Notes: generated by a model from the letters alone, not told the origin. Shown: positions 1 through 22,972, counted from the first letter of the whole stretch. The stretch is 46,007 bases of DNA, filler included, from Catajapyx aquilonaris (GCA_000934665.2; 2 parts of 2 records of this genome joined end to end with filler, not necessarily neighbours in it); one strand, 5' to 3'. Numbers and translations are program-made.

Positions 1-36
1 GATGATCGCCCGAGAGGGTGTGAAACCGGTAGGGAA
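1..36 (+). ncRNA. Minimal type I hammerhead ribozyme (Penelope pLTR type), 5' end cut off by the window edge
   Basis: [CT]GATGA-T, stem II CGCCC/GGGTG with a GAGA tetraloop, T-GAAA, palindromic stem III ACCGGT, GTA cleavage triplet, then GGGAA (same 3' arm as the copy at 21062). The first core bases and the 5' arm of stem I lie outside the window. Confidence 0.6.
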
Positions 37-262
37 CCCGGTTCTACAGTGTGGTAATAACTATAAGGCCCCAAAAAAACGATAAAAAGCATTAAAACTA
101 ACCCAAAAAAATAATAAAAAGGATACAACGCGCACATACATTAAGGCTCTCTCGCTAGCAACGTACTGCCCCACCCTTCTCTAACGGTACAGCTTACCAG
201 TCAGCAAGGATCCGCAATCACTTGGCCGTGTGTGCCATAGGTCAACCGGCTTGAAATTAGTA

Positions 263-283
263 AACCTAACCTAACCTAACCTA
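263..283. repeat. Short (CCTAA)n array, complement of the arthropod telomeric repeat TTAGG
   Basis: AACCTAACCTAACCTAACCTA read directly. Confidence 0.85.
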
Positions 284-299
284 CTCTTAATTTATACAA

Positions 300-359
300 C
301 CTACCCTCAGCGGATACAGCCTATCCTCAGCAGATACAGCCTATTTTCAATGGATACAT
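300..359. repeat. Degenerate 20-bp tandem repeat, 3 copies
   Basis: CCTACCCTCAGCGGATACAG / CCTATCCTCAGCAGATACAG / CCTATTTTCAATGGATACAT. Confidence 0.75.
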
Positions 360-1157
360 GCTAATATTAAATCCAAGTACTTTTAATTTTTACTTTCCAG
401 CAATTATGTAAAGAATTAAGACCATTTTAAATCCCATATAAATAAAATTTTCTTTCCATTTCAGAACGATAGTAAGGGAACTTTGTATTATAGCGATAAT
501 GTAGGGAAAGGGTTAAAATGTTACTGTGTTACATTAAAATGTAATGTTGAGACAGTTCATTAGTAAGGTGATGGTAATAATTGTAACGATCATAGGTGAA
601 AGATAATTGTGAAGGGATATAGCTATCATTGTTTTGTAGTTATGACATGTAACAAGAGAGCATGGAATGGGGTGATGGAATGCATGAGTGGAATTGAGAG
701 TTATACTAATACAAAACATTGAGAGTCATTAACAATGTACTTAGTTCTGTACACAAAGACCTTTTTTTCAACCCACTAAATTATCCCCCTCCCCTCCCAC
801 TGACCTTCCCTTACCCCCCACCACCCACTGGAAACCTCCCTACACCAACTTGTCCTTAGAAAAAAGAAATCCCCAACTCCCCAGTTTACAACCTTGTTTT
901 TGCACCCCAAAAACTCTCTCTATACTGAAAAAAGAAAAAGAAAAAAAGAAAAAAAGGCCCCCCACTCCAACACCCCCCTTCCCTCCTCACCCAAATTCTT
1001 TTTTTCAACCTCTCCCTCTTTTTACCACTCCATCCATTGCTCCAAGCCAGGGAGGTAGCTCCCACACAGAAATGTAAGTGTTATAGAATTCTTATTATGT
1101 GTCGTAGTCTGGTATGGGTTTTATAGAGTGAATTTTATTCCTTGTAGAAATTACTGT

Positions 1158-1200
1158 ACTCTCCTGATGAGGCCAAAATAGGCCGAAACATGTAGAGAGT
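1158..1200 (+). ncRNA. Minimal type I hammerhead ribozyme (Penelope pLTR type)
   Basis: Stem I ACTCTC/GAGAGT, core CTGATGA (1164-1170), stem II GGCC-aaaata-GGCC, GAAA, palindromic stem III ACATGT, GTA cleavage triplet. Core fully canonical. Confidence 0.92.
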
Positions 1201-1320
1201 TCAAAAATTCACAGCTGAAATACATAAGGAGATTATGGAAGGAATTTGGACTTATTTTTTTAACAACATGGACTAGACAACTTCATACTGAGTCGTAACC
1301 GCCCTTGTTAACCACAATAA

Positions 1321-1344
1321 AACCTAACCTAACCTAACCTAACC
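1321..1344. repeat. Short (CCTAA)n array
   Basis: AACCTAACCTAACCTAACCTAACC read directly. Confidence 0.85.
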
Positions 1345-1508
1345 CAACCAATACCTAGTTCGACAATTGGCCAAGAAACAACCCGTGATCTTCAACGAGG
1401 GGTACTAATTTCGTATGTATAAGGTGAACTCAGATGACAATGACCATGCATTGAGACACCAGGGTTATTTCCAAACAGAGTGGCAACCAAAGGGGGACCC
1501 CCATTAAC

Positions 1509-1859
1509 GTGACCTTGGCAGCATTTAAAAGGCAAATATATTTGGCCAATAAGATAGATGACCTCGAACGATCCATTGCAGCTACACAGCCAATACATGT
1601 TGTTGAGACTCACCCTAACCAGCACATCCCCTTCTTGAATGAGATGAACGCTGAACACTTTGCCAAAATGGAAGCTCTGCTCCGGTATACTTCACTCCAG
1701 ATGACCCAATTGATCCTCAATGAGTACATCAGACTCCATAATGATTCCAAACAAATGGCAAAAAAGCTGTACTGGAGCCTCAGTGCTGAGGAAAATACTG
1801 GAGTATATGGGAGCCACAAGTCAACCATACATTCGACACCCAAACTAGACACTATATAA
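1509..1859 (+). pseudogene. Possible N-terminal ORF fragment of a Penelope-like element
   Basis: Helical-looking ORF shortly downstream of a hammerhead-bearing pLTR; no diagnostic motif. Confidence 0.3.
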
Positions 1860-1903
1860 GAACTGCCTGGCACCCCAAAACAGACTACAAAAATCGGAAA
1901 AAA

Positions 1904-1931
1904 GGTGCGTCTTATATGCGAGTAAATACGG
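1904..1931. mobile_element. Solo terminal inverted repeat of a Tc1/mariner-pogo (Tc2-like) element
   Basis: Reverse complement TA|CCGTATTTACTCGCATATAAGACGCACC resembles Tc2/pogo-type TIRs and abuts a TA dinucleotide; partner TIR not found. Confidence 0.55.
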
Positions 1932-2056
1932 TATTTTTAAAGGAGAAGAGAGGGTGAAGTCACTGCGACTTTCGATTCCTGGAACATGGTGACTGCTCCT
2001 TTTGAGTAGCAGTGATTTTATGGCTCACCACATTGCTTGCTGTCCATCTGAGAAAG

Positions 2057-2344
2057 ATGGCTGCTCCTGTGAGGCTGTTCAAGGTATGCTGCGAAACAAA
2101 GAAGAAAGCCATAGCAGCGGTCAGCACTCTTGATGCCGTCAAGGAGCAAGGTACAGTATCTGGAATTCTTCATATGCACTGTGCATCATGCACCACCTAA
2201 TTTAACTTACTCCTATACTCAGGGAAGAAGAAATTGGGCCTTCCCGATGGCTGCCACGTGCAAGTGTTCCTCAGTGATGGGAGCGAAGTAGATGACGATG
2301 AAGTTCTGCAACTTTTGTCGCAAGACAGTGTTGTATCTGCTTGA
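2057..2344 (+). pseudogene. CIDE-N-like domain fragment, 2 exons (2057-2150, 2223-2344), probably a DNA-transposon accessory gene
   Basis: Spliced translation RLFKVCCETKKKAIAAVSTLDAVKEQG|KKKLGLPDGCHVQVFLSDGSEVDDDEVL fits the CIDE-N pattern (FKV...DGTEVDD); phase-compatible GT-AG intron. Confidence 0.55.
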
Positions 2345-3213
2345 ACCAGATGATGAAGTAAGTTACTGAAGTCATGATTTATGTCTGCTTTTAATATCTC
2401 TTCCAACCATTAAAAATGAAGGCTGATATACGCCACTGAAACCTTGATCCTAATTCCTCAAGCTGATGCTGTACAAATTATTTTTGTTCTTGAAGATATG
2501 ACCGGCCAATTAGTGGCTGGTCTGATTAACCAGTGTCCCAATCATTCGCATTCGTAGGATTTCACTAGACTCATTTCTTCCTTTCAACAGAAACCGTGGC
2601 AATCTAACAAGCAAAGTAACTTTTCTTTCCTGGGCGAAATCACCTTCCAGGTAAGGGACTCGGAGCGATGTGCCCCGCGTGGTTCGGAAACCGCAGGTGC
2701 TCCCGACCGAGAGTGGGCCGAGGAGGATGGAAGCCCTCCGATGTGAACCCTCCCCGGGGCCTGCGGCGGAAGACGGCGTCGGAGGGGTTGAGTCGGCCCC
2801 GAACGATGACGACGAATTCGACTGGGATGGTGGGACACTTGGTGTTCCGGGCGACTAAGATCGAGCCCAACAGCAGGCGGTCTGGAAAAAGGCGTAGGTC
2901 GATCGACCCAAGGCCGATGCCAGACCGACAAACCTTTATGCAGCCACCCAGGAGAAGCTACGCAAGCGCCCGAGGGACCTCCTGGAAGACCTGCTGGAGG
3001 GTCGGGATGTTTGTGCCCGACCCCGCCCAGCGGGAGACGATGTTTTTAGAGACGGTGACGATGGGATTGATAACTTTTTACCATATGTGGGATCAAACGC
3101 GGCCGTGGGCGACATGGTAACGGCTATGGGGCACGAGCTGCCATTACAAATAAAGCAGCTCTAAACTGGGTAAAATCGTGTTCCCCACTTGTTATTAAAA
3201 CAGCAGACAAAGG

Positions 3214-5419
3214 CAGTGGCGTGGGCCGCCCCCCCGAAATGTTAAGAAAATCAATAAATGCATTACATTATGTAACAGTAAAGAAAATATGATTATTATT
3301 TGAAGAAAAGGCTTTTTAAATGCCTTGAATGATTTTCGAGCCTTGTTGCGATACCGTGCCAGAGGTGGAGATGCTGCACTAGAAGAGCATTTGAAAAAGG
3401 CCCCGGGAAATGCAATGTACGTCAGTCCTACTGTACAAAATGAATTGCTGGAGTTAATTGGACGTCAAATTCAAAATCAAATCATTGACAGGCTTAAGAA
3501 GGCAACATTCTTTTCGGTTTTAGCCGACGAGACTACAGACATTTGCAGAGTAGAACAATTTTCTCTTTGTCTGCGGTATGTCGATTCGGAATGTTACATT
3601 CGAGAGGATTTTGCTGAGTTTGTTCCAGTGTATGATGTCTCTGGAAAAGCACTGGCCTCATCAATAAAAAATCAAATAAGTAAGCTTGGTTTAGAAATGG
3701 GAAACTTGCGAGGGCAAGGTTATGATGGAGCTGCGTCCATGAGAGGACAATTTCGTGGTGTTCAAGCAATTATACGAAAAGAGTACCCCAAAGCAATTTA
3801 CACTCACTGTTCATCACATTGCCTAAATTTATGTCTCAATGATGCAGCAAAACCTACCACTGTCAGGAACTGTTTTTCAACAATCTTCGAAGTGAGTCAG
3901 TTTTTTTAGAGGTTCTGCAAAGCGCTGCAAGATATTGAAAGATGAACTGGAAGCTTTTGATATGAAGAATTCTTCGATCTACTCTTACTGTGAAACCCGT
4001 TGGGTTGAAAGACATGATTCAGTGATGTCCTTTTGTGAATCGTTTCTTCCAATAACTAGTGCATTAGAAAAAGTGATTGAACAAACAAGTGACGCAGCTT
4101 CAAAGTCAAAAGCTGTCGGTTTGCACTCAAATATCTGCAGCTTCAGCTTCATAGTAACATTAACAGCAATGTCAAGGTTGCTAGCAGTGACGTACAGCTT
4201 ATCCCAAAGTCTTCAGAAAGAGACAATTGATCTCAGTTCAGCAATGGCCAAAGTTTCACTGGCTGAAAGTCGTTTGAATCGAATTAGAGAAAATGCAGAG
4301 GACGAATTTCAGAAGATTTTTCGGCAGGCTTCTGTAATGGCTTCAAAAGTTGGTGTGACACCATCATTACCCAGAGTTGTTGGAACACAAAGGTTCAGGT
4401 CAAATGTAGAATCACATTCATCTGAAGATCACCACAGAATAAACATGTTCATCCCATATCTGGATGACGTAATACAGGCTCTAGGCGAACGTTTTTCCAG
4501 TCACAAGCGTGTTTTGCTCAGTTTGGAAAATGTTTTACCAACAAACACAGTGAAAAGGACTTTCAGTGATCTCTCCCCTGCCATTGAAATGTACAAAACC
4601 GACCTGCAAAATGGAAATTTACATATTTTGGAGGCAGAATGGGACGCTTGGAAATTTTATTGGGAAACCTCCGATCATCAGACACCCAAGTCTGCTGTTG
4701 AAGCACTGCAGATAATATGTAAAGAACAGATCGACACTTTCCCAAACATTATGATTCTCCTCAAAATCCTTGCTGTACTTCCAGTAACCACTGCATCGGT
4801 TGAAAGAAGCTTCTCGACTCTCCGAAGACTGAAGACTTACCTTAGAAGTAAAACCAGTGAAGAGAGACTAACTTCTTTGGCACTGCTAACAATACACAGA
4901 GACTTAATTATAGATAAAGAGAAGGTTGTATCTCAATTTTCAGAAACTGCCCGAAGAGTGAAGTTTTTCTGAAAAAAAAGAAACGTACTTTCACATTTTT
5001 GTGAAAGGGCTATTTGTGATTGCACTTCCTGAAAATTGATAAACAGCCTGCTCTTTAGTTATCTATAGTTTGTAGGAGATTGTGATGATCCTGAACATTT
5101 GTGACAGCCTATTAATAATTATTCTTTTTATGGTCCCAGGTTACAATGTAATATCAGTAGTAGTAGTAGGCTTAATAGCTATCAGCAGTGCCATGTATGA
5201 ACCACATATTGGTTTTATAAAAATAAAAAAATCGACACTGTAATATACATCATTCTGTCTTATAAATATTTTCGCGGTTTATGAAATCCTCCCCCTCCCC
5301 TCTCCGACTCGAATACTGTTATGATACTTCAAAAAAGTCTTACAATAGGTTACAATATTATGAAACGGACCGATCGGCCATGGGTTCCCCCCCGAAAAAA
5401 TTTCCTGCCTACGCCGCTG
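3214..5419 (+). mobile_element. Internally deleted hAT DNA transposon with TIRs and a 6-bp TSD
   Basis: Imperfect TIRs CAGTGGCGTGGGC (from 3214) and GCCTACGCCGCTG (ends 5419); CAAAGG duplicated at 3208-3213 and 5420-5425; contains a hAT transposase. Confidence 0.85.
3325..4972 (+). pseudogene. hAT transposase (ZMYM1/P52rIPK-like), N-terminally truncated, one frameshift
   Basis: Motifs FSVLADETTD, GQGYDGA, YTHCSSHCLNL, ETRWVERHD and the dimerisation domain LPVTTASVERSFSTLRRLKTYLRS. One extra T in the run at 3901-3907 splits ORFs 3325-3909 and 3935-4972; removing it restores FFRGSAKR. Confidence 0.92.
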
Positions 5420-5641
5420 CAAAGGATTTGGCTTATGCTGTATGCCTCGTGCATTTTATGTGCAGAAAATGGAACAACTACTTTCAAGTGAGCTATATTT
5501 ATCTGTTGGACATATATCAGATTTAGACCTGATTGTGAGACCAGAGAGAGAGGTTGAAGACTAACTGGAACTTGTCCCATTTCAGAAATTTCATGTACAC
5601 TGTGCTGTGAACACACTGCCCAGAGTCCAGACTGAACAGAC

Positions 5642-6145
5642 GTGTGCGATAGCTGCTGTACTGAAGATAACACCCGGGTCCAATCGGACTCACCGTCAGA
5701 ACCAGTCGAGATGGCATCAAAAGAAGCAATCAAGACCTTACTTGATGACCTCAAGAACGACATGATGGAACAGTTAACCTCAAAATTGGATCAGACGATG
5801 AAACAACTGGACACGAAGTGGTCAGTGGTGGTGGAAGATATCCAAATGGGGCAACATAGTTTGGTGACTCAATTGGAAGCAGCCAACGCACGTATTACCG
5901 AGCTACAGAAGACACAGGAAGTGCTAGTGAAAAAAATAGACGAGGACGAAAACAGAGAACGTCGCAATAATAAAATTTTCCACGGACTACAGTCGGAAGA
6001 ACCATTAGACTCCTGGAAGCAGGTTGAGGACCTCTTACGCAACTTTATATCTAAGTATCAACTCCATGATTCACCAGAAACTGTAGAGTTTCAAAGGGCA
6101 CACGTGCTGGGACGCCCCAGGAGGGGGGCCCCATTGATAGCTACA
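5642..6145 (+). pseudogene. Non-LTR retrotransposon ORF1 fragment (coiled coil plus RRM-like, L1/L2/CR1 type)
   Basis: Coiled coil followed by DENRERRNNKIFHGL and FQRAHVLGRPR...PLIA, typical of ORF1p (RR.N..I.G...RAHR.G); 3' truncated. Confidence 0.75.
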
Positions 6146-6479
6146 TATGGTACCCACATACCCCCCAACTTGCTATCATCTCCTTTTCCAAAATATACCA
6201 AAGCAACACGTATTTTCTTTATTTAAATTTTTCCAAAATGTGAACAAAAGAATTAATTTCTCAAAATATTAAATATGTCAAGGGTTATATGTACAGTAAC
6301 TTAAGTTGTAAACTGTAAACTGGCAGGGTGTGTGTCCCCCGAAACAGGACGTAATGTACTGAGCAAGGGGCACCGTATTGAAAAAAAATAAAAAATAATA
6401 AAAAATAAAATAAAATAAAAATAAATATATCAGATTTAGACCAGGAATTTTTGGTGTCCCACAAAACCTGTTACGACTG

Positions 6480-6905
6480 TATGCTTGCTTTCCTGCCAAC
6501 ACTTCGAAGTAAGGTATTAACAGATTTCCAACTAGTTAATCAGTACCTTGCTATAGATCACATTACTGTCCCATTGGTGTATGCTGTACCAAAATTAAAT
6601 AAATTGGGATCTGATCATCCGCGGGATTAGGTTCTAAGGCCTATCGTACAAGGCATGCATTCATGTGGCGGGGCGAGTTAGTGCAGTCCTTGTGTACCTG
6701 TTACGTCCACTTATGCATTTCGTGAATTACCAGTTGTTTAGTCCAGATCAATTGCTTTTGTCTTTTGACCCACAATTTGTAGTACCCCCAAATTATGAAA
6801 TGTTCACACTCGATGTAACAGCAATGTATCCATCAATTGATCTTCATTTGGTCAGATCTACCATGAAAATTTTTTATGCAACTTTCAGTCGATATAACCC
6901 AGTAA
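6480..6905 (+). pseudogene. Penelope-like reverse transcriptase fragment (copy 1)
   Basis: PLVYAVPKLNK...LRPIVQ...VLVYLLRPLM...TLDVTAMYPSI, with a stop and a frameshift; related to the RT at 8028. Confidence 0.8.
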
Positions 6906-6929
6906 GCTCTGACTGTCTTTATGGAATTA

Positions 6930-9325
6930 TTGGACATAGTCCTTGTGGCAATAAGCTCATAATTCCAGTTATGCTACCGGTATTGAAACTTTGTTCCCAA
7001 GGTGTAACACTCGGTGTAACAGTTCTTCTCACGAGCAAAAAATTTCTAGGGGTGTTAGCTAATCTGAAAAGTGCAGCACGCAAATGGGAAAGATTGCTTG
7101 ATACACGTGATGATGCATTGCATGGCATGTTCCAAGAGGCAAAACAAAAGGGGCTTGTATACCACCACGTACAGTTGACATACGTTTACACTTAACAAAT
7201 CTATGGCATAAGATTTTTGAACTGTATGAAAGGGACGGTTACGGCACCTTGTTTTATAGGGGAGACAGATACCATATTGAACGGGATTTTATTGACGTTC
7301 CGCAAGAATGGGTGGATGAGTGGCCTAATGTGGCACTAGCCAATTCAGTGCGCAGAAAGGGTAGGGGAGGAAAAAACTATTGAATTGGGATACTGTGCAG
7401 GAGTTCACCTCCATTTCAAAGAACCTTGCAGATTTACAGTCCAATTTTGGATATATTTTTCAACAATTGGGCACTAGCACTTTAAATGAAGTTATACGGC
7501 AATGTCAAGGGTCAGCAGACATTCACATTCAATTTCAACCAAAACGGTTTTTTCGTTGCCAGGTATATGATAGTTAATATAACAGACTTACAAATCTCAA
7601 AAGTTGTTATGGACTTTTTGCAAAATGGAGTTAATTTTGTAATGCCCACAGCTTTGACAAAATAATGCACAAAAGCATGCATGTCTGGACTATATGGAAC
7701 ATCATTGCTACAAAGATATCGAAAAGTTGTATGACACTCATCGAGGACCAGGTTTACAAGGTCACAAGGACAAGGTATACAAACAAATCTTTCGAAACTT
7801 AGTCACTCATGCAACAGCTTATAGAATTCCAGCATCGTTTCCAGAATTTGGGGCATTCACAAAGCTAAAAAGGGCAATGTGTGATTCAGCTGGTAAGGAA
7901 GTTCGTTTAAGGCGAGGCAAACAATTTAGGTGCTGGTTTGCTGCCTTTGAAGTTTTTGAATACGAGGATACATAATGATAATAAGAGCTGTATAGTTAAT
8001 TTATCGACTCATTTTGTTCCTCAATAAGTGCTCCGATATTTCGAGTTGGGGCCGAAGCATATTCCGCCTCGATTGATAACTGTGTCAGATGTACAGAATT
8101 GTGCTGACCATCTTCAGACGTACTGGTACTATGAGGTTTTACGGCGAATGAATCCTATCGAAAATAATTATCAGATAGATTCGAGATCCAATAAGAATGA
8201 TGCTAAAATTTTTTTTGACCTCACTAAACCTCAACAAGTATTCCCTAATAGTTATCCGGAATCAAAAGTGGGTATGATAATGATGAATGCATTTGAGTCC
8301 TATCAGGGGTCACGTAGACCTCCTCCGCGGAAAAGTAAGGATGAACTAGAGGCTTTAGCTTGTTTGAAAGATAATGTTCCCGATAGAATAATTGTGCAAT
8401 TAGCCGATAAAGGTGGAGGATTCGTACTTATGGACAGAGAATTCTATGAACACAAAATGTTAGAGCATTTAGAGTCAGGATCTTACCAGTTGCTTGGTGT
8501 ACATGATGAGGTTAGAGTAACTTTAGGGGACAAGCAGGATATGTTGAAACCTCAAATTTTGGAGTTGATTCCGGGGCTAAGTAGAACGGTTCTTAAGAAT
8601 GCCACACTGAAAGATGCTTTTATTGACCAAACCCATGTCCAGCCAGTCCTACTAGTATATGGTTTACCAAAGATTCGTAAAATGGTCAATAACAAACAGG
8701 ACATATCCATGAGACCTATTGTTCAGAGATTCAAGGCACCCACAGCTCGGATTAATGATGTCCTGGTTTATCTACTGAGACCTCTTATGTGCAAACTACG
8801 CTATCGGTTGTTTTGTCCAGATGACCTCCAAGATCTATGCGCCAAGAACCGTGAGATTGGGCCGCAAACCATGCTTGTTACCTTTGATGTCACGGCCATG
8901 TACACAAGTCTTCCTCATGCGCTTGTCAAGAGACATGTTAATGATTTTTTTCCAAATATACAAAGGAGAGAGCCCTATCACATTCAAGTTCCTGATGACA
9001 CTTTTAATGATTTGCTAGAACTGTATTTGACTGATTTTTTTTAAAATTCAATTTGGCAACAAAGTGTACAGACAATCATGTGGAATCAGTATGGGTTCGG
9101 CCGCGGCACCCATGATTGCGGATATATTCCTGAACAGTTTTGAGACTCAATTCTGTTTTTTGTATGGTCCCCCAGATCTTTTGTTCTACTGTAGACACTT
9201 GGATGTTTTTTTCCGCCGAAATAATTGCTAAACAATTTGAGAAAGACTTTAATGAGAAGACAGGGATCACAGGGACAATACAGGAAATAGGGGGCAGGGC
9301 GGCCTTTTTGGATTATACTTTTTAT
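6930..9325 (+). pseudogene. Degenerate Penelope-like element ORF: long N-terminal region plus reverse transcriptase (copy 2)
   Basis: IVNLS..LGPKHIP, LADKGGGFVLMD, VYGLPKIRK, MRPIV, TFDVTAMYTSL, GISMGSAAAPMIADIFL, a decayed YxDD region (RHLDVFF) and AFLD. Frameshifts after 9040. The 5' boundary is approximate. Confidence 0.85.
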
Positions 9326-9589
9326 ATAGATCTTCCAGGGAATGTACGAGGCCAGTTGCCGGGAGCACATCCGACAGCTGGTCGCTCCTTGCCTCCCTCC
9401 TTCTGTACAGTTTCTCCTGCCCTCTTCAACTTCTCCTTTCAACATGTGCGAACGTGACCGAATAAACGAAGTACCGAAAGAATCCCGTGTCCCTCATTGT
9501 GTGACGAACATCAAAAGGTCACTCATGCCATTGTGAAGTGGGAAATTTTTTTCAATTTCAAGAATTTGCCCCTGTCAGTATGCGAGTAT

Positions 9590-10045
9590 TTGCAGATGAA
9601 TGCATCATATAAGCTTTGGGATGGGAAAAGGTTAAAAACAGACCAAGGGAGTCAAGGGCAGCCAGTCACACTTGACCAACGATTTGCTGGTCTGGAATGT
9701 ACTCCCACCACTGCAAAATCTGTGGCGAAAGTGGCGGTTAACAGTGTAGTGTTCCAAGTGGGACATGTTATATATTTTGGTGATTTTGCCAAGGGAACTG
9801 GACAGATTGGATGTATCCAAGGCATTCTTGTGATTGGTGAGAAGGTGGTTTTTGATTGCTGCCTTCTTTTTAAGAAAGGATATGAGAAGAGAGTTAATGC
9901 ATTTAAATTGGGGCTGTCCAGGCACTCTCTCATCATAGATTCCAGTAAGTTATTGTCACCCTGGCCACTTCTGGAATACCAAATATCCAATGAAATATAT
10001 GTTATTTTTCATTGTGTTCTTGATACCAAAATATGGAGTGAATGA
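9590..10045 (+). pseudogene. Probable C-terminal fragment of a CACTA/EnSpm-type transposase
   Basis: VFQVGHVI..GQIGCIQGILV...KLLSPWPLLEYQI resembles the C-terminus of animal EnSpm transposases (recognised from memory). Confidence 0.45.
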
Positions 10046-11329
10046 GTGAACTCTATGTAATTGCAAACAGGTGAAATATGTTTGTGGAAATATTTTTGTG
10101 TCTAATGTCAGAAAGACAAATAAATGTTGAAATTGCTTTCTGGTTTCTCAGAGTCGGGAAGAGGGAAGTGATGTTATATTGAGTGATACAGAGGCGAGCA
10201 ACACTGAGGAAAATGCCAGAGTGGAAGGAACTTCCGGAAGAAATAGCACAGGGAGAAGCTTAAGTTTCATACTACCAGACTTCTCAGTGCAGTTTCATCC
10301 CTTATTGAACGGGGCTGACATGAAGGAGGACATGAGGAAGTGCTTGAGTTCAGAGCTCAAGTACGAGCTTGCCAAATATTTGGAGTAAGCTTATACTGTA
10401 TACACTTTGGAAGGACTGCCCTTGACGAACGTGTGCCTCCCCCCCTTTGTGGCATCATGAGGGAATTTAGGCAGAATATTAAAAACAAAAATGTGCCAGT
10501 CTAACCTAACCTGGCGTAACTTAGGCTTCCCCCTAAAATCATTTCTATCTGCAAAATACCCCACAATCCTTCCTCCCTTCTCCCCCACACACAAGTTTGT
10601 GAAGTACAGTCCAACCTGCACTTCTGAATTTATTCTCTTACATGCTATCATGTTTACAGTATGTATATATGGCGATAGGTTATGGAGTCAAATTACCTGA
10701 TATTATCTCTTGTACAGTTCCGCCAACCTTCTCGTGAGTTCAAATTCATCATAAAACAAAGTTGGCTATTTAGCACTGGGGATGGCCATGGCTAATAAAT
10801 ACCCCCAGACATGTTGTGTGACAGTTCACCAGCAGGGTCCAGAGTAAAAAAAACCAGAGCAAAGGACTTCCCAATGTTTGGGTATGTGGCAAACATGAGT
10901 ACGTGTGAAAATTGAAGCCACTGTGCCTTTATGTCCTCTTTCAATCATTTCCAGAGCACCTTCATTCACCGACTCTCACTTCGGCGCAAGCTTCAACGAA
11001 GGCGCAAAGAGATTGCATTTAACAAAGCAGCAAAGCCCTTGAAAAACCAGCAGAGGTGCCTGAAATATGCATTGATGATGCGCTGAAGGAGCTGAGAGTG
11101 AGTGAATAGCATATTCTAACTGTTGGTGGGGGTGGTAGTTGTGGTGGTGCGGTATTGGTGCCATTATTGTCATTATCATCATACGGTAGTTATTTTATTA
11201 TATTGTACATTTTCAGATGCTAGAAAGTGCTGACATACTGGAAGCTGGCAGCATTGATGCAGAAAGAATGAAGGCACTTTTGGCAATTACTCTGGCAGAC
11301 GGGAAACATCAATTTGATGTTTCTTGATT

Positions 11330-11464: not shown

Positions 11465-11478
11465 CACTTGTATTATCA

Positions 11479-12259: not shown

Positions 12260-12526
12260 GAACCAGCTGATGACTTTGATCCAGAACACACATTGGGCGA
12301 TATAGTGCAAGGGACAGACGAGGTGGTCGATGCACAATTGGGCGCTGGGAATGGCGGTGTGAGGACCAGTGGGGACGAATTAGAAGCTGACGGACGAGCA
12401 TTGATGGAAAGCCAACAAGGAGGACAATGTGATGATGCTGGAAACGACGAAGATGACGAGGAATGGGTGACACGTTCCAGTGCATCAGCAAACCCAGAAA
12501 ATGTGGCTGGTACACCTGCTGACATG
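12260..12526 (+). repeat. Dispersed repeat A, copy 1 (acidic Gly/Asp/Glu-rich ORF fragment)
   Basis: LGDIVQGTDEVVDAQLGAGNGGVRTSGDELEADGRAL...DDEEWVTRSSASAN aligns with 18772-19041. Confidence 0.9.
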
Positions 12527-13288: not shown

Positions 13289-13289
13289 A

Positions 13290-14446
13290 AGACACTCGCC
13301 CTCACAGAGGAAGGGGAAGGCACGTCGACGATCAGCAGGATCAGAGCGTTGCTACGCCCCATAATCCCTCACAAATCATTGCTGCCCGATAAGAAGTCAC
13401 TCGGGACAGCATTGGCAAATTCAATATGAATGACGCCAAGCTCGTGTGCTAGAATGCACGATCACTCCAGCACAAAATCCCAGGGCTCATCAAACGAGCA
13501 TATGAGGACTTCACACACCCACCCATCCTCGCTGTAACGGAAACGTGGCAGAGGGGGAAGGCGCAGAATGTAAGAGGCTACCTGGACTATTCAAAGCCGA
13601 GGCGAGGGGACACAAAAGGTGGCGGGGTAGCCATATATGTGCCCCAACAACCGTGCTTTATGGCAAGCACGGAGCTAAATCTGACGGGCGTGCAAGCCCC
13701 TCTAGAGGCGGTGGCATGCAGGGTGAAAACCTACTTTTACAACCCGCCAGGTGAAAAGCTTGACGAGGATGTACTTTCCAACATACTCGAACAATGCCCA
13801 AAACCACTGGTCATGTGCGGAGACTTTAACGCGCACAGCTGCGAGTGGGGAGGGCACACTACAATAACAAATGCCTCGGGCACGGCCCTGGAGAATGCCG
13901 CAGCGGCAGCAGACCTAATAGTACTCAATGTCGGACGACCCACCTATCAGAGGGCCCCCGGCGAGCCCGGCTCAAGTCTGGACATTACTGCCATATTTGG
14001 CGACATATCTATGGACTACGCCTGGGAGGTGGGGGAGGATCAGTGGGGGAGTGACCACTTCCCAAAGTTCCTCGTCCCACTTAAGCCTGCACGCAAGCAC
14101 CCCGCCCCTATGGGCAGTGTAACGCGGCAGGTGAACTGGGCCACGTTCAAGACTCCGGCAAAACGTATTCAGCATCCGGCTGGGAGTGATTTGAAACTCG
14201 GTCTGACTGAATTGACCGGCGCCATTTTGACGGCGGTCAAAGAGGCGACCCTAGAAGTGAAAACCCCCGACAAGTTTGTCGCGATGCCCTGGTACAACCA
14301 GGCCTGCGCAAAGGCGCTACAAAAGGAAACAGAGGCTAGAAGGGGAGCCAAAAAGCACCGTCAGAACACAAAACTCCGGCTGGAGTACAGACGCGAAGTG
14401 GCCAGGTGCCGCAGAACGCTGCTTGCAGCCAGGAAGGCCAGCTGGG
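13290..14446 (+). pseudogene. LINE fragment: probable ORF1 end plus ORF2 AP endonuclease (I/Jockey/R1-like)
   Basis: ORF2 ATG at 13426 overlaps the upstream TGA (ATGA). Motifs (W>stop)NARSL, AVTETW, GGGVAIYV, YNPP, MCGDFNAH, LDI, GSDHFP. No RT domain follows. Confidence 0.9.
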
Positions 14447-14700
14447 CTCCATATGAGCGATGGCATTACAGGAAACCATCTCTAGAATACATAAGAATTT
14501 TTGGTAGCATAGCATATGCCAAGACACCAGATGAAAAAAGGAGGAAACTAGACAGTACAGCTGAAAGGTTGATGTTTGTGGGATACCAGGAAGGAACCAA
14601 AGCTTATAGGCTGGTAAACCCCGATAACAACACAATTCGTGTAAGTCGAGATGTGAAGTTGATGGAAAGTTCTTCGCATGACAAGAAAACTGACGTGAAG
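14447..14700 (+). pseudogene. Ty1/copia pol fragment (post-integrase SH3-like region)
   Basis: PYERWHYRKPSLEYIRIFGSIAYAKTPDEKRRKLD...MFVGYQEGTKAYRL...VSRDVK. Confidence 0.9.
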
Positions 14701-14725
14701 GGGATAACACTATTAGGAAAGGCAA

Positions 14726-16733
14726 ATGGTGCACAGCTCTGTCCCGAATTTGGAAATACCATGCAAAGTAGCTAAGTGCACAAGGACATGCAACAGTTAC
14801 GCAGCCATCGACCACGCTAATTTTACTAGAGAGGGACGAGATTTGCATACAAGTGCTGCTGGGGACATTATGACATGTCCCTTGCAGATCTGTAAGCAAA
14901 AACTTTACAGTCAGCAGTCTTTCCTGAAACACATCAAAGGGCACATATCTCAGGGTTCCGCAATTCAGTGCCCATATGCTGGCTGCGAAAGGCAATACAA
15001 AAGGCTTTCATCATTTACCTCTCATGTCACACGCTATCACAGAAACAATTCGCAGCTTTCTGCACATTTTCAAGAGACCGAATGTGTGCAAGTGAGAACT
15101 AACAACTTGCCAGACCAAGTACTATCAGATTCAGAGACAGAGAAAGATGATGTGAACTTAGGGAGTAGTGGTAATAGTACAGTAAGTCAAGATGAGCTTG
15201 AGCAGAAGGTTGCTCTTTGCAAACAAAGTATCACGTGCCAAAGTCAACCATTCAAGTAATAGTGCAGGAGCTTCGCGATACACATGATTTAAATCAGAGT
15301 CATATAACAAGGGAGCTGAGCAAATGTTTGATGATGCACAACATCCCACAGAATGTTGTTCAAGATATTTCTGACACATTCATTCGAGTGATCTTTTTTC
15401 TCACATTCATGAAAAGACAACTGGAGCTTTGAGTACTAGCTATAAGCGAGAGAAGCACTACAAAGAGAGATACAAGTTCATTCCACCAAGCTCAATTAGG
15501 CTAGGTTATGATTCTTCCCACACACTACAATTTTACCAAATGTAGCCATCAAAGATAGAATTTCAGCCATATTTAAGGATAGTGGTGTACGGGAACAGTA
15601 CATGCAGTCAGTGCAAGAATTGCCTTGGTGTGGGGAATTACCTGGGTGTGGGAAATTACTTCGTGATTTCACTGATGGTACAGCATTCAAGGAGAACATG
15701 TTCTTCCAGGAAAATAAGAAAGCACTGCGCATCATGTTATACCAGGACTCTTTTGAGGTGGTGAATCCACTAGGCTCTGCTAAATCAAAGCACAAGATTC
15801 TTGGAGTACCGGGTATATTACATGCTAGGGAACTTGTGCAACTATAACAGGTCCAAAGTAGATAGCATTCAGTTGGCGCTGTTATGCAAGGAAAAAATTT
15901 CAAGGAGTTCGGGCACAGAGCAGTTTTTTATCGTCTAGTGGAGGATATTAAAGATATTGAAAGGGAAGGTCTTGACCTAGGATTCAATGTAAATGTCAAA
16001 GGTAGTGTTGTATTTATTGCAGGAGACAACCTTGGCAGCCACTGTATTGGTGGGTTTTTGAAGAGTTTCTCCACTGCGCAGTACTTTTGCCGTTACTGTC
16101 TGATAACCAAAGAGCTGTTTCATAAGTGTCCTGTTCATGAATCTTTTACATTGCGGACAAGAGAAAGCTATGACATTGCTGTGTCACTGGTGGAACAGAG
16201 CCATCATGAAGTGCCTGTAACAAGCCAAGAAGGTGTGAAGTTTCATTCAATTTTTAATTAATTACAAGGGTACCATGTTTGTGATGCACGCTTACCACCA
16301 TGTTTGGGTCATGATATGTTTGAAGGAGTAGTTCAGTATGATGTTGCCACTTACCTGAAGTATTTTGTTCTTGACAAAAAATGGATTACCTATGACATGC
16401 TTAACAGGGCATTAAAGAAATTTAAATGCAGAGGATGCGAACCGAGTGACAAGCTCAATTCCGTATCACAAAATGGAGAAAAACTTGGGAGGACATGCAG
16501 TACAAAATTGGTGCATGCTGAGAATTTTGCGATTGCTGGTGGGGAAGTCAATAAAAGATACTAATGACTCGGTGTGGCAGTTCTTATTGCTTTTAAGGCA
16601 GCTTGTTGAGATTTTGTGTGCACCAGTAATAACTGTGGAGAAAGTTGCACACCTGAAAGTACTGATTGAAGAATACTTGGATGACAGAAGAGCATTGTTT
16701 CCTGCACAAGAGGGTAGAAAAAGAAAAGGATAA
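14726..16733 (+). pseudogene. CACTA/EnSpm-type transposase with N-terminal C2H2 zinc fingers, multiply frameshifted and 3' truncated
   Basis: CPLQIC..H..H and CPYAGC..H..H fingers; LYQDSFEVVNPLGSAKSKHKI; IAGDNLGSHCIGGF..FCRYC; PPCLGHDMFEGVVQYD; LGGHAVQNWCMLR. Confidence 0.8.
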
Positions 16734-17869
16734 AACAGAATATGAACCAGTTCAGACAAATCATGGATACATACAAAAAAAACACATAAATCAGGTGAGA
16801 AAGACGTTAATTCATCTAACTGTAACATAAGGTGACAAGGCCATACTGTATAGAGCCTCGTCTGCAAGAGTGTATTTGTTGCATTCCATACTGCAATACT
16901 TTGCAATACTTTTTCAATATTTTCAAATTACATGGCTATGTTGTGAGGGCTAATAATGGTTCAAATTACAAGTGTACCTAAAAAATTCACGTAAATAAGG
17001 CTTCTCACATGTCAACCAATACAACACAATGCACCTTCTCATACGTGACTGCAGCCACCAGTGCCTGTTCGTGTTGCATTCTAATCCACAATCCTACATG
17101 ATTAAGTTGTAGGAAACTGCATGGTACTGAGTAATCCTGATCATTATTGAAACTGTCGCTTATTAGGTGAACTAATTTTACTATTGCAGCACACTCCATT
17201 CCACTACTTGCACGTCAAGGCATAGCACAAGACACTGCACCTGGCACCAACACAAATTCAACTGTTGTGTCTGATTTGGCTGACCGTAGTCGTGAAGTAT
17301 ATATGTATTTCATAATGTCAGATAATAGTCCACTTAAAATGATGGAAATATGACATTATTTTCTTTTAATTTTATGATACTTAGATTGATGAGGAGCTGA
17401 CTGCAGAGGTCCACGCAACTCTAGAAGAAGAGATTGTACCTCCTGCACACACAGATTCAGATCCTGTTGCAGATTCTCCAGTATGAATTTCAGAAAATAT
17501 GGTAATAGTCCCCTCTAAATGATGAAAGTGTGACATTATTTTCCTTTATTTTTATTATGTTAAGAGTGGTGGTGAGCAGACAGCTGAAGTTGTGCAGACA
17601 ATAAGGCAAGAAGAGCATGTTTGCAGCAGAATGGTCACACTCAGAAACCTGGTGGCGGAGAAAGAAATTGAAGAAGAACAATTAAAGAGGAAGCTAGCAG
17701 CCTATGAGGAAATCTGCAATCGTAAGAAATTTCAAATCATTCATAAATCTAATTAGGGCTTTCTTCTATAATCATTTTAATATTTCAGCTTCTGAAGAAG
17801 TATCCTCATACTTGAAGGCATTGGGAAACTTGGTGGGAATGGTGTCATAAAGTATAATATTCTCTCCCG

Positions 17870-18144
17870 ACTGCTAATCGGGAGGTCCTGGGTTCGAATC
17901 CCGGAGGCCGGCGACCCTGACCATGGTTTTCTGTGGTTTCCCATGGTCCTTGCAGGATAATTCCGGGGTCGTTACCGTAATATAGGCCACAGCCGCCTCC
18001 TTCCTTCCCTTTCCCTGCTTCATTCCGGTGATGAGAAAAATAGTAAAAATGGAAGAGTTCCAGACAAAAAATTGGGAGAAATCCCCCCCCTAGGAAAGCC
18101 CGTAGGCTGATAATGGGGTATCAAATTATTATTATTATTATTAT
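17870..18144 (+). mobile_element. 5'-truncated tRNA-derived SINE with (TTA)n tail and 15-bp TSD
   Basis: B box GGTTCGAATCC (17891-17901); (TTA)n tail; TAATATTCTCTCCCG duplicated at 17855-17869 and 18145-18159. Confidence 0.9.
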
Positions 18145-18771
18145 TAATATTCTCTCCCGCCTCCACAGAATGAGTGCAAATATGGTCAAGAAGCCAGGCA
18201 GGAAGGAAGGGCAGGAAGTCCATTGGCCAAGTTGCCATCTGCGCATGATAAAGTAAGTGTGGATGATAATTTTTGAATTAACAGCATTCCATGAACACCA
18301 GACATCCCCAATAGCTGGATTGATATCAATTTCCTCCACATAAATAAATTTTACTGCCAAAGCTAATATATAGCTTAGCTAATTAAGTAATATCTGTAAT
18401 AGAATATTCTAACAAGATCCAGAAGCACTGATGATAATGGCTTCATGGAATTTATTTGGATTTTTCTCTATCCACCTACAAAACTTCAACAGCTGATGCA
18501 TTGCAATTAAAATTGTGACAATAAATTCAATACTTCAGGTAAAACTGGTTCAAGGTTCCGAAATCATGGTTACCAAGGCACAAAGGAACACCATCCTGTT
18601 TTATGGTAAAAGGAAGCCGCCACTAATTGTCGCCAAGTTTCTCGATGTGCTGCACCCCAGTGGATTACATATGTTTTCTGCTTTATACGGGAAGAGGGGT
18701 TTAACACCCCTCCCAGCAGAAGAGACCGCAGATACGGCGGGACGTGGACACCTCCAGGATGTGGTGTCAGG

Positions 18772-19041
18772 GAACCAGCGGATGACTTTGATGCAGAACA
18801 TACCTTGGGCAACATAGTGCAAGGGATAAACGAGGTGGTCGCTACGCAGTTGGGTGCTGGGAATGGAGGTGTGAGGAACAGTGGAGATGAAGCTGAAGTG
18901 GATGGCAGAGCATTGGTGGGAAGTCAACCACAAGGAGGACAATATGATGACGCCGGAAATGAAGCAGACGATGAGGAATGGGTGACAAGGTCCAGTGCCT
19001 CGGCAAACCTTGAACATGTTGGAGGTGCACCTGCGGATATG
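18772..19041 (+). repeat. Dispersed repeat A, copy 2
   Basis: LGNIVQGINEVVATQLGAGNGGVRNSGDEAEVDGRAL...DDEEWVTRSSASAN; diverged from copy 1. Confidence 0.9.
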
Positions 19042-19708
19042 TGTAAGCGCATCATGGAAAAATTCTTTCACAGTTTAAATCCACTGAATAGGTCAAATGG
19101 TCTCGGTGACAGCCTTGATAATGGTAAATTCGGGTAAATTCCCTGGTAAAATGTTCGAAATTTTGGTGCATGAGAAAGACAGAAAATTGGAGCAAATGCT
19201 GGTGGAATGTAACTTGGCGAACATTAATGTTCCTAGGAAAAAGGATGTACGTAGATGCTGTTCTTACTAAATACTGGAACAATGGCTATCAGGAATATTT
19301 TAGAGCCAAGAATAAATTACAGAGTTGTGATAAATGGCAGGAATACAAATGGGGTTTGGCACGAAAAAATACATAAATTGGCCGCAGTTGGAAGGGATAA
19401 GAATTCAGGATAGCCTTGAAGTTGTTTATTTACATAATCAATTGGTGTGTAAATTATTGGGTGTTGATACTGTGGTGGATATATATACTGCACTTAACCT
19501 GCACTTAACTCGACCTGCTGATACTTTGCAAGCCCTTCACCGTCCCCATGATGGTCACATGGTTTGCTATAGTGGATGTTGTGCAACCATTTTGTACTTT
19601 CATTGTTACTTGCTATATTCATTGCTGCACTGTAGGTTTATATTGTACTTTTGATTTCTCTGTTAGTAACTTTCAGCGTCCCCCAGTACTCCTTATAAAC
19701 TACACTGT

Positions 19709-19751
19709 GCATCTCTGATGAGCCCAGTAGGTGGCGAAACGCGTCAGGTGC
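19709..19751 (+). ncRNA. Minimal type I hammerhead ribozyme (Penelope pLTR type)
   Basis: Stem I GCATCT/AGGTGC (one G-U pair), CTGATGA (19715-19721), stem II GCC..GGC, GAAA, palindromic stem III ACGCGT, GTC cleavage triplet. Confidence 0.9.
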
Positions 19752-19905
19752 TGATTCAAAGGAGGACTGCTGCAGGTCATGTTATGCAATGCATTATTCC
19801 TGAGCAGATGATGCTTTGATCATTTAAATTCCTGTCTGTCGTCCTCTGGGTGAAAACTATGTCAACCCAAGCAGCCTCCATCCAAGACACAGCTTCACAG
19901 GCATC

Positions 19906-20301
19906 GTGCTGGGCCTCATAATCCGCATCAGAAGGAGAACCACCACCATCACAGGCGCCATCAACTCTGGGATTGAAGCGCTGACCCAACTGGCCAGACA
20001 GAGGTATCCAGCCACCCTCCTTTTTACTCTCCTGAGAGAAAATCAGCTTCCTGACTCCCACAGCATCATGCCCCATTCCGGCACCCCCATCCGAAAGCAG
20101 CCCCCCTTGCTAGCCCATAGTTGGCAATGGATCTTGCCCAGAAGTGCTGACCACAAACAGATCCTAGCCATAGTGCGCAAATGGCAACAATCAGCGCAAG
20201 CCAATTGTCGCTTTCCGCCTTCTGCGGTGAGCTGCCTCCCAAGGAAGGGTCGTAGCACCTCCCGAATTGCAATTAGGGCGTCCCATCCCTACACAGCCTA
20301 G
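19906..20301 (+). pseudogene. Possible post-RT (thumb) fragment of a Penelope-like element
   Basis: GLIIRIRRRTT...EALTQLARQRYPATLL loosely matches the PLE R..R.....L...GYP thumb pattern; lies between two hammerheads. Confidence 0.35.
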
Positions 20302-21061
20302 CCATAACCTCCCCTACCGCCATCCTCAAAGCCCACCTCTCCCAGCTGCAGACTCGGCATTACCCACCATGGAAGAACCGGCTCTGAAGAAACCCAGCAA
20401 TGAGGCGGCCAGCTCACGTGACCCACCTCCTATCTGCCCTACACGGGCCGGAAGGACCCGCAAGATCGCATTTGGGACCGACCGGAATCATCTTACGGAC
20501 TGCACAACACGGGATCATACCCGGCACATCCGCAGGAAGATGGACAAGCAGCATCCCATAACGACGGGATTCCAATAGTCGAACCAGACGACCAGGACAA
20601 CGACATCATTAGGACACCTCACCACCATGTACGGGGACCCGGAGCAACACCCCCGCGAAGGGGGCGGTCCCCTACGCAACTTCCGGAAGAGCGAGATGAT
20701 CCTCGCCACCCCCCTTTTTAACCTTTTATTGTACTTTTCTTTCCATAGTGTATTCCCTCCCCCCATAGTTGTGACCGAAGCCAGCCAAGACCGAAGCCCC
20801 CCCCCCCCTTTCCCCCCAAACCAGCGTCACCCGCTTTTCTCAAGCGGGCCTTCCCCTATGAATCATGCCTGATTCATACCATCCTGACTCTACAAGAGGG
20901 CCTTTCCCATGAATCATACCTGATGCGTAGCCCACCCACCGTATCCTACCCCCATACTTCCCTGCAAAACTCCCGACCCAAAATTCCGTTCCTTTTTTGG
21001 TATAAATAGGCCACCCCTTGGATGGCCTGGTCACAATCAGCCAAAGCCTCCCTGCTGTCAC

Positions 21062-21108
21062 TTCCCCTGTTGAAGGCCCCACAGTACTGGCCCGAAACGA
21101 GTAGGGAA
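21062..21108 (+). ncRNA. Variant or degenerate minimal hammerhead ribozyme
   Basis: Stem I TTCCC/GGGAA, core CTGTTGA (A6 changed to U), A-C mismatch closing stem II GGCC..GGCC, GAAA-C-GA-GTA. TATAAA about 60 nt upstream and AATAAA just downstream. Confidence 0.65.
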
Positions 21109-22134
21109 ATCGCTGTGAAGCTTTTGTGCTGTAAATAAAATCTGGCTGATTGCTTGGAAGAAGAAAAAATGCACGCTTTTAATAATTACCACGGATCGAA
21201 GCGACACTTCCTGACCACCTCAGCCCACAGCAGCAGTCCGGCCGAGGAGAGGACCACCATCTTCGACCACCAGCATCACCCCGGAGCACCCACCAGCCCC
21301 GGAACGACCCTCCAGGATTCCCCAGACCAGCCTATAGAGGACACCACCATTTCACAGCTCGGGCAGCCTTGACCATGGCCGCCTAGAGAAGCAGCTTTCT
21401 GCCCCGGGGTACGTCAGCTTGAAGTAGCAGAACCTTACTTTTTAGGGCTGTGAACGTAGTGGTCAATTTCTGCTTGTTTCATTAGACTTTTTCATTAATG
21501 GCTTTTTATTACAAGCAGTATTACCAGTTCCCTTGGCATCTGTCCAAGTAAAAAAATATTTTTTCATGAATGTAATTGGTATTTTGTAGGTCAGAAATAG
21601 AAACCGCATGCACAAGTGAAACACCGGAGAGGAAATGGCCTGTGCCTTTCATCTTACCAAGATTGCCAAAGACAGTGAGTGATGCCATAAAAGAGAACAG
21701 GATGACTTCTTGCGAGAGAAACAAGCTTGTGGCCACTGTTTTTGAGGAAATGTGCAAATACACATTGCGAGTTTTTTTTTAAATCAAACTGCTGAGCCAC
21801 CCGGAGGGGACACTACTGCACCGGGCATTACCATGCGCTCATGCTACAGGAGCGAAACATCCAAACTCTGAGTATTCATGGGTGGGCCAGGTCAATTCCC
21901 TAATGTTGAAATATAAATTGCTCCCATGGGGAAAGAACAAATTGACGTCCCGGCCCTGCTTTTAGCGACCCTTGCCCAGGTAAGGTCGGAGGACCTAAGT
22001 AGGCTGTCGGCGAAGGAAAAATATGCACACTATTTGGAAATACGGAGCGTAGAGGGTAAAACGCCTTACTTAAACGGGAATCTCCCACTGCCTGGACCCT
22101 GATTATCTACCAAACCGGTTTAACCTCCGTTTTC

Positions 22135-22941
22135 ATGTACAGAACAACTTTGCTATACGTGACAGGGCACGTGCTAAATGGAATGATAAAGCCAATAATG
22201 TCAACGGTAAGGGAGGACCCAACAGGAGACAGGGTAGGAGGGGCCCAGGGGGAGACAGATCTGGGGGAGATACGAGAAGAGACCAACCTACCACACCCAG
22301 GCCTCCAAACAAACCAGGTCCCTAGAAACATCCCAAGCAACATTACAACGCAACCGCCTCTTTCCAACCAAGTGCTTGACCTGTACCAACCACAACCACG
22401 GAATTTAACTACTATTCCCGGTACCAAACCCACCTATACACCTCTTCCACCAAGAGTTCATCGTGGCAAAGGGGCCTCCAAGGGACGAGGAAGCTCTACG
22501 CAGGTGGCAGCAGTCCACAGCCTTGGATCAGATGCAGCCGGTGGAGCCCCAGAAACGATGACCATAGCTCCATCAATACCATCTGCGGCTTCCATTGTGG
22601 ACGAAGATGGCTCCCACTTTGAAAACCTACAAGATGAGGGACAATTTCAGGACCCGGAAGAGTTAGTCCATGCAACACTCAACGACTTGATACAAGATCA
22701 AGAAACAGCGGAGGATGGAGATCAGGAGGATGGTACGGAAGCAGCCGGGATGGGCCAGGATTATGAAGAGGATCCACTGGGGCAAGTCAGGGTCACTCCG
22801 GATGTCAACGCCAATGCCAACCAGTCACAACATGGACCTAGTGGGTCTACCAGGTCACACCACAAAGGACAAGTTCTTATGGACCATATGTACACTAATT
22901 TAGACCCTTTAAATACTGCCAACTGCTGGGGTATGAAATAG
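22135..22941 (+). CDS. Low-complexity Pro/Gln/acidic ORF, probably transposon-derived; function unknown
   Basis: 268-aa open frame, disordered composition, weak resemblance to repeat A (ATLNDLIQD vs HTLGDIVQG). Confidence 0.3.
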   Translation: MYRTTLLYVTGHVLNGMIKPIMSTVREDPTGDRVGGAQGETDLGEIREETNLPHPGLQTNQVPRNIPSNITTQPPLSNQVLDLYQPQPRNLTTIPGTKPTYTPLPPRVHRGKGASKGRGSSTQVAAVHSLGSDAAGGAPETMTIAPSIPSAASIVDEDGSHFENLQDEGQFQDPEELVHATLNDLIQDQETAEDGDQEDGTEAAGMGQDYEEDPLGQVRVTPDVNANANQSQHGPSGSTRSHHKGQVLMDHMYTNLDPLNTANCWGMK

Positions 22942-22972
22942 AAGAAGTGTAATCTAGTCTGAAAAATTCTCG

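Follow-up and report, generated by a model that had tools for sequence, protein, structure and literature searches.

The closest described systems to the DNA analyzed here are the one-strand (unistrand) source loci of PIWI-interacting RNAs (piRNAs) and the telomere-attaching Penelope-like retroelements. Our subject is the left-hand piece, positions 1-22972, of a 46,007-nt window (the whole stretch of animal DNA that was analyzed, from Catajapyx aquilonaris), and it is built of transposon remnants that lie in one orientation wherever this could be read. Telomere-attached, endonuclease-deficient Penelope-like elements were reportedly described by Gladyshev and Arkhipova in 2007 and by Arkhipova et al. 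in 2017 (cited in PMC8557442). According to the accessible part of a Drosophila study, flam-like loci are enriched in Gypsy-family endogenous retroviruses (ERVs), extend over hundreds of kilobases, and lie outside centromeric and telomeric regions (PMC10643416). The same part reports that Drosophila scans for strand-biased, transposon-dense loci recovered real unistrand clusters, with six candidates outside the melanogaster subgroup, and that the two species with public small-RNA data both had one-strand piRNAs (PMC10643416). For Penelope-like elements, the available text describes a hammerhead ribozyme together with reverse-complement telomere repeats as the signature of the telomere-attaching, endonuclease-deficient Athena and Coprina, calls Athena rotifer-specific, and in that portion names no telomere-attached element for arthropods (PMC8557442).

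We identified the piece as a transposon graveyard, in which truncated, abutted remnants of unrelated families have their sense strands on the + strand. All 9 well-supported remnants were found on this strand, as were all 3 weak ones, and the annotated pieces cover 7,935 of 22,972 bp (35%), with 15,037 bases (65%) unannotated. The 9 well-supported remnants are as follows.

1158-1200, + strand: type I hammerhead ribozyme with minimal helix III (Rfam RF00163 Hammerhead_1)
3304-4969, + strand: hAT transposase remnant (Pfam DUF4371 9e-23, DUF659 2.3e-4, Dimer_Tnp_hAT 2.2e-11)
5663-6217, + strand: ORF1 remnant of a long interspersed nuclear element (LINE), L1 ORF1p-like coiled coil plus RRM (relatives and profile)
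6538-6883, + strand: Penelope-like reverse transcriptase (RT) fragment (local hidden Markov model [HMM] positions 229-340, independent E-values [iE] 0.015 and 2.2e-5)
7965-9156, + strand: Penelope-like N-terminal and RT region (local HMM positions 22-400, iE 6.5e-39 and 2.9e-9)
13453-14443, + strand: LINE apurinic-type endonuclease and linker (Pfam Exo_endo_phos_2 3.5e-17, Exo_endo_phos 5.5e-9)
14470-14680, + strand: copia-type integrase C-terminal SH3-like piece (PF25597 SH3_retrovirus 8.4e-25, residues 340-408 of its open reading frame [ORF])
14867-16718, + strand: CACTA/EnSpm-like transposase remnant (local HMM positions 19-619 of 827, iE down to 7.2e-105)
19855-20064, + strand: third Penelope-like RT fragment (local HMM positions 483-552, iE 5.1e-6)

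The 3 weak remnants are these.

2210-2332, + strand: CIDE-N-like piece (Pfam PF02017, E 0.035, 14.6 bits with the cut-off at 23.5, covering profile positions 25-65 of 76)
9554-10012, + strand: possible C-terminal CACTA-like piece (local HMM positions 662-820 of 827, iE 0.042)
17851-17904, + strand: tRNA-like head of a short interspersed nuclear element (SINE) (Rfam tRNA 22.2 bits against a gathering score of 29, E 1.6)

The Pfam scan covered 396 stop-to-stop ORFs of at least 50 aa without X from both strands of the window, 214 of them within 1-22972, and given the many stops in the remnants, each of the six frames of 1-22972 was also read through with stops as X (E ≤ 0.1). On the - strand of 1-22972, the three frames read with stops as X contained no Pfam family at E ≤ 0.1, and the local Penelope-like, CACTA-like, and ORF1 profiles found nothing better than iE 1.6. 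Among the 214 ORFs, the sole - strand match was to DUF5715, which is not a transposon family (15980-16183, E 0.0084; score 16 bits, cut-off 26.8). Host-gene domains were likewise absent from 1-22972 by Pfam, apart from the weak CIDE-N. Direct Pfam comparison in six frames recovered neither RVT_1 nor Transposase_22 on either strand at E ≤ 0.1, and RVT, rve, gag, protease, and env families were absent from both strands at the same threshold, the copia-type SH3_retrovirus being the sole long terminal repeat (LTR) element trace.

These results agree with the original prediction that the piece holds no recognizable transposon on the - strand, no host gene, and tightly abutted fragments, which are indeed truncated at both ends. 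Its claim that every orientable fragment lies on the + strand was upheld for the 9 strong and 3 weak remnants, that is, within the annotated 35%. Its list of fragments differed from our results in 2 kinds: the predicted mariner was not recovered, with no mariner/Tc1 family at E ≤ 0.1 in six frames and nothing by motif patterns, and Rfam showed one hammerhead where several in pseudo-LTRs had been claimed. The predicted hAT, LINE ORF1, LINE endonuclease, and copia fragments were all recovered, and the 2 predicted Penelope RT pieces became 3. The CIDE-N piece and the SINE were seen on the predicted strand with scores below their thresholds, and of 2 predicted EnSpm pieces, the one at 14867-16718 was recovered on the + strand under a weakly supported family label, while the second was weak.

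Since at least six unrelated groups are represented (hAT, L1-type ORF1, Penelope-like, LINE endonuclease, copia, and CACTA-like), most of the remnants are separate insertions. The adjacent Penelope-like pieces at 6538-6883 and 7965-9156 may be one partial-tandem insertion. For composition and poly(A) signals, the right-hand piece of the window was used as an internal control and contrast. The 2 pieces meet at the following feature.

22973-23072, no strand: artificial spacer of 100 nt, 44 N + TTAATTAATTAA + 44 N

The N runs at 22973-23016 and 23029-23072 flank TTAATTAATTAA, which carries stops in all six frames, and from this form we infer an artificial joint between 2 separate assembly pieces. 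Position 22972 is thus the end of an assembly piece with no biological border, the genes to the right are not neighbors of 1-22972, and features must not be read across 22973-23072. The prediction spans exactly one assembly piece, or its end.

A exceeded T on the + strand in 20 of the 22 1-kb bins of the left-hand piece (two-sided sign test, 1.2e-4), compared with 12 of 22 on the control piece, and the AT skew was +0.079 in the annotated bases and +0.078 in the unannotated ones. Further, ORFs of at least 150 aa numbered 13 on the + strand and 5 on the - strand, and self-blastn identified 3 direct and 0 inverted internal repeats. The orientation bias is probably real, and it is unproven for the unannotated 65% of the piece. 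The poly(A) signal AATAAA occurred 25 times on the + strand and 16 times on the - strand, and the control piece had 23 and 13, respectively; an asymmetry equal to that of the control is uninformative, so the earlier argument that the orientation avoids the elements' own poly(A) signals is lost.

We tentatively favor a unistrand piRNA source locus, of which the piece would be a segment, as the most likely single explanation and one that is not established. A long precursor would be transcribed from the - strand, from a promoter beyond the right end at 22972, and would be cut into piRNAs antisense to the elements, while selection would keep insertions antisense to the precursor and remove those in the sense orientation. 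Transcription, its direction, the small RNAs, and selection are all proposed from the one-way layout and the strand-asymmetric composition observed here. In favor of this reading count the single orientation of remnants from unrelated groups, the empty - strand in the Pfam and profile searches, the asymmetries in AT skew, ORF number and repeat direction, the synonymous excess between the 2 copies of an unnamed repeat described below, the near lack of host-gene domains, and the success of layout scans in Drosophila (PMC10643416). Its standing came from a rough Bayesian weighing that used our own estimates, not values computed from data. These were a prior of a few per cent that a transposon-dense stretch belongs to a unistrand cluster, and probabilities for roughly 9 all-antisense remnants of about 0.3 inside such a cluster and of 0.004-0.03 for a neutral stretch whose insertions are partly non-independent. 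It placed a piRNA cluster at roughly one third to one half, which we discounted to near the lower end of that range for other co-orienting processes.

Several findings weigh against the piRNA source locus. The piece ends at 22972 with no promoter in view, and no Gypsy/ERV material, which defines flam-like loci, was identified. Only 22,972 bp (about 23 kb) are in view, and the Drosophila loci in the accessible text measure 227-1,085 kb (PMC10643416). In addition, the three CCTAA tracts point to a telomere-related region, a type that, by the same text, the Drosophila screen excluded on purpose (PMC10643416). Poly(A) signals are not specifically depleted on the - strand, and the unannotated 65% could harbor non-coding repeats on that strand. 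Lastly, only some 7-9 events are independent, giving a two-sided chance of a single orientation of 0.016-0.004, uncorrected for the hundreds of windows scanned; the earlier value of about 5e-4 assumed 12 independent events and does not hold.

These same numbers bear on a neutral origin, in which an ordinary and probably heterochromatic repeat graveyard appears one-sided because few events were independent, because Penelope-like elements tend to insert in tandem and nested form, and because the window was selected as one-sided. We consider this possible, at clearly less than even probability. The independent events may be only 7 (P 0.016), the piece is in one window among 316 read in this genome, 65% of it is unannotated, the control piece shows the same poly(A)-signal asymmetry, and partial tandems are a known and common habit of Penelope-like elements in the available text (PMC8557442). 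Against neutrality stand the orientation shared by all 9 strong and all 3 weak remnants, across six unrelated groups, and the excess of A over T in 20 of 22 bins, which includes the unannotated DNA.

The lack of a host-gene domain on the - strand concerns a further alternative, in which the piece would lie within a very long intron, or another long transcription unit, belonging to a host gene on the - strand, and selection against the terminators and splice sites of sense elements would leave mainly antisense ones. Antisense bias in introns is moderate and involves mostly LINEs and LTR elements, and a complete 9 of 9 that includes DNA transposons would rarely be expected from it. The bias itself is documented for transposons in human genes, as the accessible part of that study reports (PMC3517506), and with no flanks in view the exons could lie outside the piece. 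However, Pfam identified no host exon or domain on the - strand, and AATAAA is not specifically depleted there relative to the control piece, and we regard an intron as unlikely.

The hammerhead at 1158-1200 scored 34.4 bits (gathering score 34; E 2.9e-5) over the full model 1-45, with its CUGAUGAG...CGAAAC core intact, and Rfam found no second one in 1-22972. It is of the kind found in the pseudo-LTRs of Penelope-like elements and is present as a single copy, with no physical link to the RT pieces. Three tracts of a simple repeat were identified in the same piece.

263-283, + strand: (CCTAA)n tract (exact repeat scan)
1321-1349, + strand: (AACCT)5.8 tract (Tandem Repeats Finder; 1321-1344 by exact scan)
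10501-10512, + strand: short (CCTAA)2.4 tract (exact scan)

We take CCTAA to be the complement of TTAGG, the arthropod-type telomere repeat. The tract at 1321-1349 begins 121 nt downstream of the hammerhead on the same strand, so that reverse-complement telomere repeats adjoin a hammerhead at 1158-1349, as in Athena and Coprina. All 3 tracts are on the + strand, the sense strand of the retroelements, with none in the opposite orientation, and a count of the word CCTAACC gave 11, that of its complement 0. A common tail of the 3 tracts was considered and rejected, as a MAFFT alignment was suggestive, yet local alignments scored no higher than shuffled sequences did.

This arrangement raises the alternative of a chromosome-end or subtelomere relic, in which retroelements were added head-to-tail at TTAGG repeats and other elements landed later. 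The hammerhead followed by the (AACCT)5.8 tract, the common strand of the other 2 tracts, the CCTAACC count, and the presence of a GIY-YIG domain in only 1 of 11 relatives of the RT piece at 7965-9156 (precomputed Pfam) all favor it, as does the known pairing of hammerhead and reverse-complement telomere repeats in Athena and Coprina (PMC8557442, available portion). However, it leaves unexplained why DNA transposons (hAT, CACTA-like) and an endonuclease-bearing LINE share the orientation, the tracts are short (12-29 nt), and their tails lack significant mutual similarity. Moreover, in the portion of the source at hand, endonuclease-bearing Penelope-like elements also favor microsatellite-like targets, which could explain the tracts, and Athena is restricted to rotifers (PMC8557442). 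We find a subtelomere relic improbable on balance, at about the same level as the intron or a shade above it. A combined history, in which a fossil arthropod chromosome end with a head-to-tail array of hammerhead-bearing Penelope-like elements and TTAGG-complement tails trapped co-oriented transposons and is now a one-strand piRNA source, would be more improbable still; if true, it would connect the origin of unistrand clusters with retroelement arrays of telomere type.

The RT pieces are, from their relatives and profile matches, of Penelope-like type. ORF 8028-9041 (338 aa) had 11 longer relatives (E 7.6e-12 to 7.2e-4), and by precomputed Pfam 6 of these 11 carry RVT_1 (PF00078), 1 carries GIY-YIG (PF01541), and 2 further families are common to all 11. 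By tblastn, all 11 matched only 8160-9134, on the + strand. The local Penelope-like HMM was built from these relatives, and its best - strand match had an iE of 1.6. GIY-YIG was not found by Pfam in the + frames of 1-22972, and the RT pieces are truncated, with no full-length copy in the window.

The hAT remnant comprises 2 long ORFs (201 and 358 aa) with one frameshift between them. CIDE-N is a host-type domain and not a transposon domain. For the LINE ORF1 remnant, ORF 5636-6223 had 173 relatives at E ≤ 1e-3 by exhaustive HMMER search, and a profile that aligned this ORF with 40 of the best 65 listed relatives matched the LINE-1 ORF1p structure 2ykp_A in PDB at 4e-19; Transposase_22 was matched in 2 of the 41 alignment members. 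The ORF alone gave no relative at E ≤ 1e-3 by word-indexed search, no transposon family in Pfam at E ≤ 10, and only coiled-coil noise against PDB by phmmer, and its only lead in the Atlas, at 0.87, was to arthropod Baculo_FP_2nd/PHD clusters. The assignment stands through the exhaustive search and the match of the profile to PDB.

A single uninterrupted + strand ORF of 440 aa (13453-14772) places the LINE endonuclease and linker in frame with the copia SH3 part. The LINE piece has no RT and lacks its 3' part, and the junction at about 14443 was read from the translation. This ORF could have formed where a deletion joined 2 young insertions, could be a chimera produced by template switching, or could be expressed as a fusion. 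The length of this frame, together with those of the hAT (201 and 358 aa) and Penelope-like (338 aa) remnants, indicates that the mosaic is not uniformly ancient.

About 190 nt past the copia piece, the CACTA-like remnant starts near its own N-terminus, where it carries a C2H2 finger. ORF 15866-16258 had 25 relatives (E 2.9e-28 to 7.5e-9), with a precomputed Pfam domain in 0 of the 25, and the profile was made from the 12 relatives of at least 700 aa. Its - strand matches reached iE 2.7, and 0.35 on the other piece. The family is widespread and multi-copy, with proteins of about 850-1,000 aa and named members in loach, catfish, and a thrips, and is characterized by a C2H2 finger at the N-terminus and by the block GDNLG.H..GGF...F......CR.C, which is invariant. 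The CACTA-like ORFs of the window had no Pfam match. Of 16 relatives scanned, 1 matched Transposase_21 (1.2e-3) and 1 matched DUF4218 (1.9e-4), and the profile found only C2H2 zinc fingers in PDB, so the EnSpm label is weakly supported.

The SINE head at 17851-17904 comprises anticodon and T arms, with a B box (GGTTCGAATCC) at 17891-17901, and ARAGORN called no tRNA. Self-blastn identified 2 copies of an unnamed repeat.

12260-12526, no strand: unnamed repeat, copy 1 (self-blastn)
18772-19041, no strand: unnamed repeat, copy 2 (self-blastn)

The copies are direct, share 81% identity over 270 nt, and encode an acidic stretch. Synonymous and non-synonymous differences number 23 and 18 in the best + frame and 20 and 25 in the best - frame. 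The enrichment at synonymous sites fits separate insertion of 2 copies of a formerly coding element, not duplication in place, and because the + frame is favored only slightly, the repeat is treated as unorientable. At the very end of the piece, a low-complexity, acidic + strand ORF (22060-22938, 293 aa) had no Pfam match and no usable Atlas match.

A chimeric or collapsed repeat contig, in which order and orientation are unreal, would be another source of such a layout. The piece is short, consists of repeats only, and ends at an artificial spacer, and the tandem and inverted structures of Penelope-like elements are known to upset assemblies, according to the accessible text (PMC8557442). A collapse, however, would not co-orient unrelated families, and the fragments are diverged and mostly unique in the window, with only 3 internal repeats; we judge an artifact very improbable, the least probable of the explanations considered.

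The right-hand piece, used as the control, carries a GCFC-type gene on the + strand and an ankyrin gene, a Cys-loop channel gene, and a MATH-BTB gene on the - strand. The ankyrin-repeat gene (32422-34388) and the Cys-loop ligand-gated channel gene (35420-37586, with very short introns) are ordinary host genes. The first ORF of the GCFC-type gene is acidic, and a tRNA-like stretch of T-arm type directly upstream of it, at 23230-23310 (GGTTCAATCCCCACC), is probably a SINE head. Near the MATH-BTB gene there are 2 near-perfect palindromes (43448-43604 and 45841-45922, the latter (TAG)16 followed by (ACT)11), both with sub-threshold Rfam matches to unrelated microRNA and small RNA families; they look like hairpin-forming repeats or elements resembling miniature inverted-repeat transposable elements.

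If the piece does belong to a unistrand piRNA source locus, it would be one more such locus in a non-model arthropod, as known elsewhere in arthropods, with an unusual content in which Gypsy elements are lacking and Penelope-like, hAT, and CACTA-like remnants are abundant, and it would help to suggest that layout is a sufficient guide to such loci beyond Drosophila. Were small RNAs absent, the piece would be an ordinary repeat graveyard and a caution on strand bias read from a dozen fragments.

Compared with the intronic antisense bias in the available part of its source (PMC3517506), the piece likewise has its elements in one orientation with respect to a presumed long transcript, whereas no host gene is visible here and the bias is complete rather than moderate. 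Athena, Coprina, and Terminons, in the accessible text (PMC8557442), are alike in that their retroelement pieces point the same way and carry, on the sense strand, a hammerhead beside reverse-complement telomere repeats. In contrast to these elements, the tracts here are short and internal to the piece, and DNA transposons are co-oriented as well. The clusters of Tribolium (PMC5613491) and Trichoplusia ni (PMC5844692), as far as the available portions describe them, share the arthropod context (suggested here by TTAGG-type repeats) and a mixed transposon content; they were defined from small-RNA sequencing, whereas the piece here is defined from its layout. Flamenco and the flam-like loci are distinguished in the accessible parts of their sources by sizes of 227-1,085 kb, a predominance of antisense Gypsy-family ERVs, a defined RNA polymerase II promoter, and demonstrated one-strand piRNAs (PMC10643416; PMC10495008). 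The piece here spans 23 kb in view, holds hAT, LINE, Penelope-like, copia, and CACTA-like remnants, and is known from DNA layout alone, and the name flamenco-like used in the original prediction, taken in the strict sense of the available text, disagrees with the piece in one feature, Gypsy/ERV enrichment (PMC10643416). What it shares with these clusters, as the same sources describe them in part, is a dense mosaic of truncated elements, a strong bias to one strand, and an interior free of host genes (PMC10643416; PMC10495008).

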